Shown: positions 3,001-58,327, counted from the first letter of the stretch. The stretch is DNA of 64,000 nt from Eledone cirrhosa (GCA_964016885.1 OZ024741.1:323392001-323456000), one strand, 5' to 3'. Notes: generated by a model not told the origin, from the sequence alone. Numbers and translations: made by a program.

Positions 3001-3123
3001 ATATTTTATTTTATTTTTATATATTGTTATTGCCTCCTCCTTATTGAGGACGCCTTGTTTTGTAAACTCCCCCCATTGTACTTGTCCCACTTTTGATGCC
3101 CTGGTGGCAAATAAAAGAAACAT
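1..3123 (+). mobile_element. Tx1-like (L1 clade) non-LTR retrotransposon, family A; 5' part lies outside the window
   Basis: ORF2 followed by a 260-bp 3' UTR ending GCCCTGGTGGCAAATAAAAGAAA, then (TATC)n-like repeats from about 3123. Confidence 0.93.
79..2859 (+). CDS. Tx1/L1 ORF2: end of APE endonuclease, reverse transcriptase, C-terminal CCHC domain
   Basis: Motifs SDH, GPGYWKLN, KSPGLDG, FRPITLLN, DQSKAFD, QGCPLS, AYADD, GGLG and CPRC...H...C. The upstream SYLDR motif is in a different frame, implying a 1-nt frameshift near 62. Confidence 0.92.
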   Translation: MRMVGYSDHKLVTCMVNLDRTHRQGPGYWKLNLSLPASKAYRNRISTLVKERLTGAIVNSRWWGSLKREIRVVSIEFSKELASNRNRKERELVDSVEEAIRSGDVARVLASRTALGQFFDAKHEGCIVRSKIRALGNEGTKAVSWARVTEAKRGSRSTIRSLRDQDGRAILEPKQMCEAFQKHFAELFGRGGGPVGDVDFGPYLDGLPLSDREAKSCEEPISAAEIEDVLSQCGKRKSPGLDGLPYELYLAMPDLFPELLEAVYCNWRQNGRIPCAVTKGVVTLVRKDENKGDDINNFRPITLLNTELQILAKVLAKRLALVVGNLVGDAQTCAIPSRSIHDNLHLMRYIIERVGNEPGFGGALINLDQSKAFDRVDHGYLDAVLAAAGFGPVFRGWINAMHSSRICSRVKVNGYLSEPFEIARSIRQGCPLSSLLYVVTLEPLLRKLELLQGIPLEPGLRKAVSAYADDVTVMVSTASEIGAIGTLLEEYERFTGAKLNRDKSIGLQLGTWRGRSMPSDGVVGRWTEGPVKLLGVWFGPDLQVEKNWGEVTSRVFALTQKWAECKLSLKGRAEVANTYIASVIYYRLTVVPYPRETLAKMERALFQFLWKKRAPMVRRSICCQHPSKGGLGMPWLMIRKHALRLRHLQVFLSGQPVWAPFVRRAFPRLVSLTELQSWVKQRPRKLGAWHTECAQALTALWQADPAVSGESTSSFYRGLVVSRCDDALGEALGMEEDELANLFGRTFSPGPMDNFQRSLAWQCYRRALPVRERLYRHGRPGRDPSKKVCPRCVCDEETVAHALVHCSGIADLWGYVEQLLSRVGPIRLTTESIVTIKPPPLFKNEVEAVFLCVIAMAKEVVWWTRLKGLRSDTFLSGQQLVRFFRYHFGRRIRMEREVLHPSRFYERWVKVARMAHVNGPSLYIRL

Positions 3124-3628
3124 ATCTATCTATCCATCTACCTATCTATCTATTTATCCATCCATCTAGATAGGAATATAGAGAAACATATCTATTGGCT
3201 TTAACCTAGTGAAGCCAATAGGCGATATAGCCAAGACACACAGCTAGAGCTCTCGAAGCGAGCAGGGCTTTAGCCCACCGAAGCCTACTTCTAACATTCT
3301 AACTTCTAGAAAAACGAGAAGCAAAATTCTTCTTTCGGGAGCAATCTTTGCCAATTAATATTAGCAGTTATACAATTATATAACCAGCATTTGTACCATT
3401 AAATCACCGAGATTGTTCGGTATTTTAAACATTTAAAAAAAAATTTATGTTGCAAATATTAACCTTTGGAATCTTTATGGTCTTACCTATTTTACACTTA
3501 CGTTTTGATTTGCTGAAGTATTTTACATCGTTCGATACTGGGTTCGGTTATTCTATCAATTATTAAAGAGTAAAATGCAATTTTATTTATTTAATTGTAT
3601 TCATTTTTATCTGTACAAATAACTAATT

Positions 3629-4200
3629 TCTCTCTCTCTCTCTCTCTCTCTCTCTCTCTCTCTCTCTCTCTCTCTCTCTCTCTCCCTCTCTCTCTCTCTC
3701 TCTCCCTGTATATATATATATATGTATGTGTATGTGTGTGTGTGTGTGTGTGTGTGTGTGTGTGTGTGTGTGTGCATGTATATATATATTTATATATATA
3801 ATATATATATATGTGCAAAAGGTTAAGTTAGTCCGAAGAAAACTCGATGCAGAACAGAGTGTATATAAGAACAAAGTAGAGGTGATACATATGAGATTTA
3901 TTGCTTAACCCAGTTACAAATGTTTCCCAGGCAGCCGGCTCGTGATCTGGGGTCATCATCCCAGACTAGACTCCAAGATAAATAAATAAATAGGCGTAAG
4001 ACCAACAATTTTGGGAGAGGGGAAAGTCGATGAAATCTAGGTATATTTTATATTTATGATAGCACAAAAAAGTATAACCGCATATGCCGGCATATAAGTC
4101 GATCCGACGCAGAGGTCGACCCCTAAAATACACACACACACACACACACACACACACACACACACACACACACACACACACACACACACACACACACATA
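3629..4200. repeat. (CT)n, (GT)n, (TA)n and (CA)n microsatellites with short interspersed fragments
   Basis: Read directly from the sequence. Confidence 0.95.
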
Positions 4201-4483
4201 TATATACACATATATATATATATGCATGCCTACACATGCATATATCTATATTTGTATATATATGTGTGCTTGTGTGTATTTGTTAGTGTGTAAATTCATG
4301 CATTCAAATATATATACACATACACACACCTGCATATATGAAGGCAGGTCGCTATGTGCACACACATATGTGCACACACACACATACACACACCTGCATG
4401 TATGAAGGCAGGTCTCTATGTGCACACACACACATATATATATATGCATACATACACACATACTTATATATATATATATATAT

Positions 4484-4534
4484 GAACTGCACGGATGAAG
4501 GGTAATCACCCAGAAACATTAGTGTCTGCAGTTC
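4484..4534 (+). ncRNA. Type I hammerhead ribozyme motif, core variant CGGATGA
   Basis: Stem I GAACTGCA/TGCAGTTC (8 bp), core CGGATGA, stem II GGGT-AATC-ACCC, GAAA, near-palindromic stem III CATTAGTG, cleavage triplet GTC; starts a ~200-bp insert in (TA)n. Confidence 0.75.
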
Positions 4535-5096
4535 TGTTTACATGCCAACACAAGATCAACAATGAGGGGCTCATTCTACTGACATGGCTTAAAAGAGGCT
4601 GTTTGCAAACGAATGGAATATTATTATTAATATTAAAAAACTCAGATTACATTTATTGTATTCAGCCGATAACTTTTTGTTATATATATATAAATATATA
4701 TATACATACATATATATATATATATATATATATATATATATATATATATATATATATATATATATATATATATATATATATATATATATATATATATATA
4801 TATATATATATATATTTATATATATATATATATATATACATACATATACATATATTACATATATATGTATGTATATATATATATATATATATATATATAT
4901 ATAAAACATGAGAAGAAAGAAGAATACTGCGTGGTTTGCACATGGGTTACATATGATAAAAATAGTCCTTCGTCAGTGATATATATATATATATATATAT
5001 ATATATATATATATATATATATATATATATATATATATATATATATATATAGTGACGAAACATAAATCAATTGCATGAACTCATAATCCTTTATTT

Positions 5097-5152
5097 ACTG
5101 CTATATATATTTCGATGATAGCCATTGAATGGCTATGACCTCATCAGGCAGT
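5097..5152 (-). ncRNA. Type I hammerhead ribozyme with intact core
   Basis: Minus strand reads ACTGC-CTGATGA-[GGTCATAGCCATTCAATGGCTATCATC]-GAAA-TATATA-TA-GCAGT. Confidence 0.85.
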
Positions 5153-5272
5153 TAGTCAGTTCTTAGATATGCCAGCTCTGTGTTTATAATGTTGATGGTA
5201 TCAGAGCCTTGGGACATATATATTATATATAAACACTATAAACACAGAGCTGGCATATCTAAGAACTGACTA

Positions 5273-55750: not shown

Positions 55751-56117
55751 CGGTTTCAACACACGATTTCAGATAAAGAATCTTGCTAAACAAATTCAGA
55801 AACGAAATATATATATATATATATATATATATCATCTTCGTTTAACGTCCATCTTCCACGCTAGCATAGGTTACATATATATATATATATATATATATAT
55901 ATATATATATATATATATATTAAAGAGTTAAACAAGATTCAATGAGTACATCAAAGAATGAGTTTTACAGTAGATTGGAAGCACTCTACAAGAAAAATAT
56001 TTTCCAGAGTTATTAATATTAAAATACAAATATTAATAAAATAGATGTTCTTTTGATAAATTAAATTTTATTATACATATTTCAGTGGTACAACAGTACG
56101 TCCTCATCACACAAAAT

Positions 56118-56298
56118 ATAATTGTTTCTACTTTAGGAACAAGGCCAGCAATTACCCAAATGCATTACTGGTACTTTATTTTATCGACCCCGTAAGGATG
56201 AAAGGCAAAGTCAACCTTGGCGGAATTTGAACTCAGATCGTAAAGGGACGTAACTATGCTGGAAAGCATGGCGTCCGACCCTCTACCGATACTGCCAT
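56118..56298 (-). mobile_element. tRNA-derived SINE copy
   Basis: Homologous to 19464-19663. Confidence 0.8.
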
Positions 56299-56321
56299 GA
56301 TACATGACATACCCTGAGATG

Positions 56322-56645
56322 TTAAACCAAATTACTATCTAGACAATTATTTTGCAGAGGGCAAGCAATTTTATTTCTACAATTACATTTTGGTTTATTA
56401 TCATTTATGTTAACGCTATTATTAAGATCATTATGCTGATTCTGCTTTAGAATTTTAGTGTTTAATTTAGCAATGTTTTGGGCCATATTCATAGTTGTAG
56501 AATAAGACAATTTAATGGTGTGTCTATTAAAAATGGAATGGTATTTATGTTGAGTAGGGAAAGAGGTGTCCAAAGCATTAAAGAATAATTTTGCAATTGG
56601 CGTTCTAACTGCTACCGAAACAGGGGGAGGGGGCGATTACATTTT
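56322..56645 (-). pseudogene. Penelope-like element internal fragment
   Basis: FPTQHKYHSIFNRHTIKLSYS...CNCRNKIACPLQNNC, homologous to 38945-39110. Confidence 0.8.
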
Positions 56646-57676
56646 AAGTGAATATTCAACAGCGTAAATTTTCCTTTCGCGGGCCAAGTAAATCCTTTAA
56701 CTTTGTTTTCATTAAATTCAGAATTTTAGAAATGTAACACTTTTAAAAAAATTTATTAAATTTATAAAATTAATAAATATAAATAACCATCAACTTTTAA
56801 AAACTCAAAATGTTGATTCTTCTCCCTTAAATAACATAAATTAAATATTTTGAAACTTAACCGTTTAATCCTTAAGGGGAAAACATTTTTTCTGCATAAA
56901 TTACTCCCCTTTATCTCTCCTTCTCTTTAAGTATCTATTAGTTGCATTCATAAACTGTAATAAAATTTTAATTCCAGAGATGTCTTCCTCGATAACCATA
57001 ATATATATATATATACATATACATATACACATATATATATATATATATATATATATATATATATATATATATATATATATATATATATATATATATATAT
57101 ATATATATATATATATATATATATATATATATATATAACAACAGCAGCAGCAATTATGAAATTTAGCGTAAGAAGCGTAGTCTAGCGAAGAAATGTGGCA
57201 CTCAATTTGATGATACATGAATACAGACACACACACACGCACCCCCCCCCACACACGCACATACATACGCACAAACAGACATACATTCAACATAAATATA
57301 TATATATATATATATATATATACACACAACCACATTCACATACATGATACACGTCTGTAAAGACTCACATACATACGTATAGCAAGAATCTGCATAAATA
57401 GACATTATTGCTGGCCTTGTGCCTAAAGTAGAAACAATTATATACATTACGTCATCTGTGGTTGAGCGTTGATATAACTGCCATTTTTCTGTATATTATA
57501 GAATATATGTGGTGAAGATTTGGATGAGAGGAGTCGATGGAATGTAGTGGATGATGTAATAAGGATGTAATGAGTGTTAAATACATAATTGGACATATCT
57601 GCGTACTAGAATTCTACAGAACATGGTTATCTATCTATCTATCTATCTATCTATCTATCTATCTATCTATCTATCT

Positions 57677-58230
57677 ACGCGTATGGGACAAATACAGTTG
57701 ACTGCCGAGTCCATAGTAAGGATCAAACCGTCAGACTCTTTCAAAAACGAAAGAGAGGCGGTTTTCCTCTGTACGGTGGCTATGGTGAAAGAAGTTATAT
57801 GGTGGACGAGGTTGAGAGGACTGAGGACAGATGCCTTTCTCTCCGGACAACAATTGATTCCATTCTTTAAGTATCACTTTAGAAGGAGAATCAGGGTGGA
57901 GAGAGAGGCACTGCACCCCAGTAAATTTACTGAAAGGTGGGTGAATGAAGCGAAAATGGCCCGAGTGATTGGGCCTTCTCTGTTTATAAGCCTGTAGGTT
58001 GAGGAAGAGAGCAAAAGGAAGAAAGGAGCACTTGCACAACACGCTCCTTGAGTTGAGGGTTGTTCTATCGACGGGGTATTAAACAACCCATTTGTGGCGC
58101 CTCCCCCCTACTGGGGATTTCGATTGTTGAAATTGCTTGTTTTTATATTTTTTACACGACTGTATGTAAAATCCCCGGCATGTCTTTGTATTGTCCCCTT
58201 TCTTGTTGCGCCCTTGTGGCTAATAAAGAA
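57677..58230 (+). mobile_element. Tx1-like family A, 5'-truncated
   Basis: ORF2 end at 57997; (TATC)n on both flanks. Confidence 0.9.
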
Positions 58231-58327
58231 ATCTATCTATCTATCTATCTATCTATCTATCTATCTATCTATCTATCTATCTATCTATCTATCTATCTAT
58301 CTATCTATCTATCTTTCTCTCTCTCTG

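Follow-up and report, generated by a model that had tools for sequence, protein, structure and literature searches.

Whether the microsatellites that separate retroelements are sites into which the elements inserted, or tails that the elements wrote themselves, is the question raised by this stretch of Eledone cirrhosa DNA. The stretch, hereafter the window, is 64,000 nucleotides long (C2:323,392,001-323,456,000 of a 3.0-Gb assembly) and is made up of stacked pieces of non-long terminal repeat retroelements with microsatellites between them. An earlier reading, made from the sequence alone, had proposed that microsatellite motifs are partitioned among retroelement families as targets. Our analysis makes it probable (roughly 0.78) that the families occupy, by target-primed reverse transcription, each its own AT-containing repeat, and that two families of RTE type add repeats that others occupy. 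The evidence for this is that a family motif on a fixed strand marks 3' ends and also the variable points of 5' truncation, that target duplications of 7-22 bp accompany the long interspersed element (LINE) Tx1-A, a short interspersed element (SINE) and the family RTE-GATA, and that the 3' untranslated region (UTR) of the family RTE-ZF contains microsatellite tracts with nested Tx1 and SINE copies.

Family motifs are found at both ends of the elements

The genome was sampled with natural copies as queries, taking 30 loci per search with 1.5 kb flanks, and 60 copies were extended beyond the first loci. Forty evenly chosen 10-kb stretches (400 kb) served as background. Calling a motif required agreement with a perfect repeat at 13 or more of 16 bases, no more than 4 bases from the junction. 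Each family's flank set includes the window copy, and 5' junction counts refer to copies ending inside their locus, the remaining copies having extended past it. Scored in this way, 4000 random points gave ATCT at 0.15%, ATT at 0.25%, ACAT at 0.78%, ATGT at 1.2% and AT at 4.8%.

At 3' ends, ATCT followed 21/30 young Tx1-A copies and 20/30 copies of the type ending at 35388, ATT followed 24/30 copies of the related LINE Tx1-B, and ACAT followed 25/30 copies in each of two R4-like families, a and b (R4a and R4b). Of the 30 RTE-ZF copies whose end was found, 24 carried ATGT and 5 carried AT. Tabulated against background, the motif is present at 5' junctions too, in proportions from 8/21 to 16/18 against 0.15-1.2%: ATCT at 10/18 young and 11/18 35388-type Tx1-A junctions (21/36 variable truncation points pooled), ATT at 8/21 for Tx1-B, and ACAT at 16/18 for R4b and 14/18 for R4a (30/36 pooled). 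Among 46 RTE-ZF copies fetched by protein, 11 ran past the locus, 8 extended into the 5' UTR and 27 ended in the open reading frame (ORF). Three of these 27 were dropped as internal deletions that lead back into the 5' UTR; the 24 left had ATGT at 16 junctions, AT at 2 and neither at 6 (ATGT at 16/27 without the drop). The binomial P is below 1e-15 for the 5' junctions of each of young Tx1-A, 35388-type, Tx1-B, R4b, R4a and RTE-ZF. Judged by the rule of PMC4494074, more than 20% of flanks carry the motif at both ends in Tx1-A, Tx1-B, R4a, R4b, RTE-ZF and a 606-bp RTE derivative. Full-length copies also begin in the motif, as seen in six extended copies of Tx1-A (three of which follow immediately on the 3' end of another Tx1-A copy), two of Tx1-B (behind a SINE 3' end) and three of R4b. 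The 5' junction counts thus bear out targeting rather than tails for Tx1-A, Tx1-B, R4a, R4b and the RTE derivative, and the claim that orientation is fixed within each family held as well.

RTE-GATA provides a tail-only control: all 30 of its 3' ends carry one to four TAGA units, and its 5' junctions show AGAT at 0/20 and AT at 8/20. For an old Dong-like fragment, (AAT)3 or longer arrays are present at the 3' end of 22/30 relatives against 0.4% in background, a count restricted to the 3' end since these relatives are 75-82% identical and their 5' junctions are not resolvable.

Duplications that include non-repeat letters were found at 6/18 young Tx1-A copies, whereas shuffled pairings gave them at 6.8% (18.8% at most). 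Off-target insertion is seen in 5/30 young Tx1-A copies; CAAT follows them and they add zero TATC units, and since they carry no such unit Tx1-A brings no array along. Clean duplications flank some off-target copies (14 bp in locus L025, 17 bp in L289). One Tx1-A copy lies inside an RTE-GATA tail (L027).

Elements and junctions in the window

The elements of the window are as follows.

1..3120, plus strand: 3' part of a Tx1-A LINE (ORF2 58-2859; RVT_1, zf-RVT; 78% amino acid identity to young Tx1-A ORF2)
3123-3168: degenerate (TATC) array, 11.5 copies with 80% matches, directly 3' of Tx1-A 1..3120
5052..5400, unstranded: two Penelope-type termini in inverted orientation, flanked by (TA)n arrays; the hammerhead core, CTGATGA..GAAA, is at 5147 minus
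6950..7556, plus: 606-bp RTE derivative, 144-bp 5' part inverted, ATGT arrays both sides; the inversion fixes polarity
7645..8250, plus: 606-bp non-autonomous RTE derivative, full length; sense flanks TATGT 5' and ATGT 3'
8325..9345, minus: R4-like family a, 5'-truncated; sense flanks (ACAT)n, CCHC and RPDI..EISCP motifs
9441..10505, minus: R4-like family b, 5'-truncated; sense flanks (ACAT)n, zf-RVT; full length ~4.2 kb
10590..10860, plus: 606-bp element, 5'-truncated, between ATGT arrays
11860..12000, unstranded: hairpin element of the 185-bp family, in (TA)n
13090..13275, unstranded: 185-bp hairpin element, in (TA)n
14226..15024, plus: old Dong/R4-like 3' fragment; sense flank (AAT)16 at 15025-15072
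15073..15766, minus: Tx1-B-type 3' fragment, on the opposite strand to the Dong-like element, the AAT array common to both
19478..19662, minus: SINE of 185 bp with a B-box-like head and a Tx1-like 3' end, within an ATT array
19701..25573, minus: full-length Tx1-B LINE (RVT_1); AAT arrays at 19664-19700 and 25574-25595
28234..29322, plus: 5'-truncated Tx1-A between (TCTA)17 and (TATC)14
29382..29755, plus: short Tx1-A 3' piece, either a second insertion or a local duplicate, with 96% identity to 28947-29341
29770..35388, plus: older full-length Tx1-A with internal deletions, APE and RT hits; (CT)35 follows
38000..38130, unstranded: sequence related to the 185-bp hairpin family, flanked by (TA)n arrays
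38945..39822, plus: Penelope-like 3' fragment between (TA)n; GIY-YIG-like ORF 39016-39444
55346..55655, minus: RTE-like 3' fragment (RTE-GATA), (TAGA)3 tail; 11-bp duplication ATATAAGGAAA outside the tail
56118..56297, minus: SINE copy at ATTAT only, no array
57678..58231, plus: young 5'-truncated Tx1-A between (TATC)12 and (TATC)21; 29 other copies 99.2% identical
58330..64000, plus: further stacked Tx1-A pieces directly behind a TATC/TC array

All the junctions named by the sequence-only reading were found in the window, far above chance rates. Tx1-A 3' ends abut TATC at 3123, 29322 and 58232, and at 29756 with only about two units. Positions 28233 and 57677, also listed as ends, are 5' truncation points rather than 3' ends and for that reason constitute stronger evidence. 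At the 35388 end, GATAT precedes (CT)35; the same reading had set this copy apart as an exception, and it turns out to be a one-off and no Kibi-like case, CT following 1/30 and ATCT 20/30 of its relatives. A (TC)n-specific Tx1 subfamily was accordingly rejected, the single CT case being the window copy itself.

Tx1-A and Tx1-B are related and differ in target

The features of the Tx1 elements agree with the Tx1 clade of the L1 group, as judged from ORF2 domain order and a separate ORF1. A 1149-residue ORF2 (L288) has Exo_endo_phos, RVT_1 and zf-RVT domains in Pfam, and Tx1 ORF2 is nearer to L1 than to R2 (E 6e-55 for L1 ORF2p vs 2e-22 for R2). The separate ORF1 (L292) has 633 codons and a CCHC knuckle, CFRCGSTSHLKASC, with no Pfam hit. 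A separate ORF1 with such a knuckle is typical of the Tx1 clade. None of the named Tx1 references (Tx1L, Kibi, Koshi) appeared among the 120 homologs listed or in the Atlas clusters. In locus L284, as in L290 and L291, Tx1-A forms head-to-tail tandems joined by just 4-8 TATC units.

Tx1-B and Tx1-A ORF2 are 62-66% identical in amino acids. Their endonuclease (EN) domains differ in a hairpin loop, NR(S/T/R)G in Tx1-A and NR(M/I)G in Tx1-B. Grafting of EN loops alters the nicking preference of L1 (PMC1950540), and the loop difference may be a lead to target choice, but a lead only.

A SINE shares its 3' end and target word with Tx1-B

The last 20 bases of the SINE resemble a Tx1 3' end and are followed by the same ATTAT as in Tx1-B: the SINE ends in CCTTGTGCC(A/T)AAAGTAGAAA and then CAATTAT, and Tx1-B in CCTTGTGG(T/C)(T/C)AATAAAGAAA and then (G/T/A)CATTAT. 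In a larger set, 68 of 174 SINE copies with a complete 3' end have duplications of 9-22 bp that start two letters past the end, 53 of these beginning with ATTATT and 18 being pure ATT arrays. The base preceding the duplication is T in 36 and C in 24 (60/68), and in 65/68 the SINE adds only two letters ahead of it. An ATT array follows 36/139 copies with a complete 3' end when all loci are taken, an enriched set, and 3/49 copies in random stretches, a share that for arrays alone lies below the 20% of the flank rule. The SINE had been counted among the microsatellite targeters; with 3/49 background copies in an ATT array, its target is instead the short word ATTAT, rarely an array. The SINE covers ~2.9% of random DNA. 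Its head, in which ARAGORN found no tRNA, we take to be tRNA-like with a B box. With a shared 3' end, the same target and duplications of L1 type, it has the attributes expected of a Tx1-mobilised SINE. We infer that the SINE is moved by Tx1-B and that the two have a short recognition word in common, which is offered most richly by ATT arrays.

R4-like families occupy ACAT repeats

The ORF of an R4-like copy (L314) has RVT_1 and zf-RVT domains and no apurinic/apyrimidinic endonuclease (APE) domain in Pfam. It also contains an RPDI..VEISCP motif, which we take to be the signature of a C-terminal PD-(D/E)xK, or restriction-like, endonuclease (RLE). A single ORF with reverse transcriptase (RT), CCHC finger, putative C-terminal PD-(D/E)xK and no APE would fit the R4/Dong group. 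The best relative of solved structure is R2, and the only named homologs are a hypothetical protein of Argonauta hians, at 58%, and RT proteins of insects, at 30-32%.

RTE-ZF lies in ATGT repeats and carries others in its 3' UTR

RTE-ZF is the parent lineage of the 606-bp element, whose 3' end and centre match its sequence. Its ORF (L381) is single, with Exo_endo_phos, RVT_1 and three C2H2-like fingers, the C-terminal one presumably BovB-like. One ORF with APE and RT and no RNase H is consistent with the RTE clade; the Atlas clusters bear no clade name. A protein query gave 37,586 first-look candidates, with many copies identical over 85 residues; RTE-GATA has 60,237 first-look candidates. A hepatitis delta virus-like ribozyme at the RTE 5' end, considered by eye and not folded, was rejected on a misfit of the P1 pairing.

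All 30 best genomic matches of the 606-bp element are full length and 93-100% identical, and the element is 67-79% alike to the 5' region of RTE-family elements. Its polarity is that of the window plus strand, since the CAGGTC end is lost in 35 copies and the GCCACC end in 3; the opposite, ACAT-sense polarity was rejected on these counts. In the 6950-7556 copy it is the CAGGTC part that is inverted. Truncation points abut ATGT in 21/35 copies and AT in 3/35. TATGT precedes 36/42 full-length copies, even inside (TA)n, and these letters may be part of the transcript. A family of RTE-related non-autonomous elements that includes the copy at window 7645 (and L389, L364, L135, L144) has a common 5' start, TATGT-CAGGTCAC.

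The 3' UTR of RTE-ZF, 150-480 bp long and mostly 250-340, is a conserved repeat mosaic with TG tracts in 53/55 copies, TA in 51/55 and TTA in 50/55. In 47 UTRs fetched through RTE protein there were four Tx1 and four SINE insertions, at or beside ATT-rich tracts and all eight in RTE orientation (L084, which had been fetched through Tx1-B, was omitted). For Tx1, four insertions compare with 0.48 expected from background (P 0.0015); for the SINE, four compare with 1.7 expected (P 0.09), which is not significant. Other insertions comprised one hammerhead-type end at a TA tract and one R4a piece. In L359, the TA tract of an RTE-ZF 3' UTR holds the same element as a 200-bp direct duplication in TA-rich DNA of the window (5464-5664 and 5938-6136, 99% identical). 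We see an even chance that a LINE of RTE type, whose young copies number in the tens of thousands, targets ATGT/AT, that the ATT and TA tracts of its UTR feed Tx1-B, the SINE and Penelope-type elements, and that APE and RLE families split the repeats by strand.

Penelope-type ends and hairpin elements lie in (TA)n

A motif scan found a canonical hammerhead core in the window at 5147 minus only, within the inverted pair of termini, which had just 5 related hits in the sampled loci. TATATATA lies directly after this core (5100-5147 minus); a short third stem and the cut site would be the same flanking TA repeat. An Rfam scan of 1-41000 returned no hammerhead, only sub-threshold microRNA matches on repeats. 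Five copies of the 38945-39822 fragment reach the right end (4 AT, 1 ATGT), and truncated left ends show AT in 1/4. Its ORF 39016-39444, without a Pfam hit, we take by its motif to be GIY-YIG-like.

The 185-bp hairpin family (3754 first-look candidates) has AT-class flanks on the left in 23/30 copies and on the right in 23/30, and its window members (11860-12000, 13090-13275, 38000-38130) contain no canonical hammerhead core. The claim that hammerhead/Penelope termini abut (TA)n thus stands as regards the TA flanks and the core at 5147, and does not extend to the 185-bp hairpins, which are not shown to be of either kind. As to the three endonuclease types that had been proposed, Pfam confirms the APE, and the RLE and GIY-YIG are presumed from motifs.

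Repeats are divided by strand as much as by motif

The partition is as much one of strand as of motif. RTE-ZF reads ATGT on the sense strand and the R4-like families ACAT; Tx1-B reads ATT and the Dong-like fragment AAT. A clean one-family-one-motif scheme is not supported: three families use ACAT/ATGT, reading it from opposite strands, the same goes for AAT/ATT, and TA is used by at least four, (TA)n being used also by Tx1-A, RTE-ZF, the 606-bp element and RTE-GATA.

Microsatellites make up 8.3% of background DNA (AT 4.1%, AC 1.0%, AAC 0.9%). We scored arrays of at least 12 bp in the 400 kb of background for contact with a library of the families seen from this window, which makes the counts lower bounds. 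An element is touched by 33/418 AT, 10/32 AAT, 4/57 ACAT and 6/18 AGAT arrays, compared with 1.4% of random points, and by 2/138 AC, 2/46 AG, 0/222 AAC, 0/55 ACC and 0/34 ATC arrays (4/495 pooled, ~1%). Arrays bearing a TpA step are touched in 53/525 cases vs 4/495 for TpA-free arrays. About a third of the AGAT and AAT arrays can be put down to these families, and the bulk of microsatellite DNA (AT, AC, AAC) is not explained by them.

The idea that the families build the landscape is therefore not upheld, with only 33/418 AT and 4/495 AC/AG/AAC/ACC/ATC arrays abutting them. Repeat regeneration does occur, but mainly via RTE-ZF and RTE-GATA, which had not been singled out as makers; the targeting families mostly duplicate 7-22 bp rather than make arrays.

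A mechanism of target choice and its alternatives

In the proposed mechanism, the APE would nick the repeat at a flexible TpA step (AGAT/A, TAAT/R and ACAT/A on the bottom strand), a site suggested by the fact that all targeted motifs contain TpA and that APE duplications begin at AT. The 3' end of the RNA would then pair with a few bases of the nicked strand, fixing orientation, and RLE families would use the other strand of the same repeats. Duplication would leave two half arrays open to slippage and renewed insertion, giving rise to element stacks, and the SINE would borrow the Tx1-B enzymes through the common 3' end.

Several points weigh against this reading. In many cases the 5' flank is the tail region of an adjacent element, and stacked copies are not mutually independent; 12/21 Tx1-B and 14/36 Tx1-A 5' junctions are free of arrays. 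Per-family counts describe the 30 best matches rather than random copies, the 606-bp loci were partly fetched via other ACAT-targeting families, and the TpA contrast rests on a library of this window's families alone. Duplications with diagnostic letters number 1-2 of 18-21 in Tx1-B, R4a, R4b and the 35388-type, not above the shuffled null, although they are hard to see there because pure arrays hide them. Point mutations in L1-EN left nicking patterns unchanged (PMC1950540), which weakens the one-residue loop lead. Reads checked for empty sites at L003 (four runs, from two samples at most) gave no listed joint that skips either insertion, a result of no weight for or against given the 120,000-140,000 multicopy records in each run.

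If the motif were only written at the 3' end, its likeness at the 5' end would stem from dense stacks or local duplication. That is true of RTE-GATA, several 5' flanks lie immediately after the 3' end of another element, a local duplication may have produced 29382-29755, and the Dong-like 5' junctions cannot help. Yet the off-target Tx1-A copies are tail-free, the SINE adds its two letters alone before the duplication, the 5' enrichment includes copies with unique sequence past the array, and landing in another element's tail is itself targeting. Tails alone are already contradicted for Tx1-A, the SINE, R4a, R4b and RTE-ZF, and as a general account are very unlikely. Less credible still is random insertion followed by selection, with copies persisting in microsatellites as harmless sites: microsatellites are a sizeable part of the background and only fixed or assembled copies are visible, but such a process would not yield a family-specific motif and strand or skip AC, AG and AAC arrays, and copies 99% identical already show the pattern. 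The stronger proposal, that every targeting family regenerates its own repeat and that together they built a microsatellite-rich genome, draws on the AGAT and AAT arrays that abut families, on duplications that copy part of an array, and on the great abundance of RTE-ZF and RTE-GATA, which do deposit repeats. It is nonetheless improbable, as the abundant array classes are mostly unconnected to these families and Tx1-A and the SINE contribute no repeat units of their own.

A closer competitor, tentative but to be taken seriously, holds that an unspecialised APE nicks TpA promiscuously and that the family motif arises from those nicks able to pair with the RNA 3' end. Duplications of all APE families start at AT, four families with other motifs or tails also use (TA)n, the Tx1-A and Tx1-B EN loops differ at only one or two positions, and for L1-EN structure outweighs sequence while other factors shape integration (PMC1950540). 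Against this, RTE-GATA has a TAGA tail and yet no AGAT at its 5' junctions, so a matching tail is not enough, and the EN loop difference is consistent across copies. Promiscuous nicking would differ from the preferred reading, occupation of each family's own repeat, only in the seat of specificity, and sequence cannot separate enzyme from RNA end.

Other features of the window

A 6.9-kb interstitial telomere-like array (47778-54715; 481 TTAGGG hexamers and 102 TTAGAAAG variants) lies ~93 Mb from the C2 end. It adjoins a 5-kb satellite with a 34-bp unit and copies 85-90% alike (41225-46215). A 258-bp inverted repeat pair, 90% identical and 10 kb apart, occupies 37523-37780 and 47525-47787, the right arm ending where the telomere-like array starts. 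A 122-bp inverted duplication (39927-40048 and 40251-40373, 97% identical) adjoins a (TA)n array, and a relative of it sits after an RTE-ZF copy in L387. A 126-codon frame (37141-37518) resembles the C-terminal end of another LINE and has no Pfam hit.

Implications and comparison with known systems

The window contains natural, probably still active sequence-targeted retrotransposons, including one of RTE type, whose close relatives differ in target and would allow a test of which of the two, endonuclease or RNA 3' end, determines it. If an RTE-type LINE does target ATGT/AT and feed other families, the ATCT-vs-ATT switch between the Tx1 lineages would be a natural test of APE target change, and the retroelements of one genome would form a producer-consumer web. 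Tx1-B is the likely partner LINE of a SINE covering ~3% of the genome. Targeting also accounts for nested element stacks, and for microsatellite markers adjoining multicopy DNA in such genomes.

The phenomenon is real, well above chance and mostly of a known kind with new motifs. Among Tx1 elements, Kibi targets (TC)n, Koshi (TTC)n and crocodilian Tx1 (TTCC)n/(TTTC)n (PMC4494074). The families described here resemble them in having an L1-group ORF2 with APE and RT, a family-specific microsatellite and related families with different motifs, and differ in motif, (TATC)n and ATT both bearing TpA, and in their mollusc host. RLE elements that target simple repeats include Dong of the R4 clade at (TAA)n (PMC2887409) and Togen, at (TG)n, and HERO (PMC4640811). 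The R4-like families share with these a single ORF, RT, CCHC finger, putative C-terminal restriction-like endonuclease motif and fixed strand in a simple repeat; unlike Dong, two families share (ACAT)n, while the old Dong-like fragment ends in AAT as Dong does, seen at 3' ends only. The Penelope-like elements Neptune and Naiad prefer (TA)n (PMC8557442), and the inverted termini, hammerhead core near the end and (TA)n flanks at 5052-5400 match theirs, with nothing new.

Searches of the literature returned no cephalopod target-site study and no target-specific RTE, although Repbase and subscription journals, which lay outside their coverage, may hold such. An Octopus vulgaris repeat annotation reports recently active Dong-R4, L1-Tx1, RTE and Penelope elements, the word "target" being absent from its main text (PMC13282606), and the accessible part of a study of octopus SINEs names no partner LINE (PMC4758252). 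Crocodilian SINEs known as SINEU are moved by Tx1 and have the same target (PMC4494074). Like SINEU, and like the L1/Alu pairing, the SINE described here shares a 3' end, a target word and duplications of 12-19 bp with an L1-group LINE. It is unlike SINEU in its presumed tRNA-like head, taken from a B-box-like sequence, and in its share of random DNA.

CR1-L3 seeds microsatellites in snakes (PMC8303610), and lepidopteran RTEs make them as new tails in a very short 3' UTR (PMC2887409). The very short, repeat-unit 3' UTR described for the latter is seen in RTE-GATA, which writes a short repeat tail at every copy; the longer, mixed-repeat UTR of RTE-ZF departs from it. Unlike the lepidopteran elements, RTE-ZF is targeted to ATGT/AT at both ends, and its ~290-bp UTR repeat mosaic is occupied by Tx1-B-type and SINE copies. 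What is new relative to these systems is a targeting RTE, the use of its repeat cargo by other families, the division of repeats by strand and the SINE-Tx1 link.

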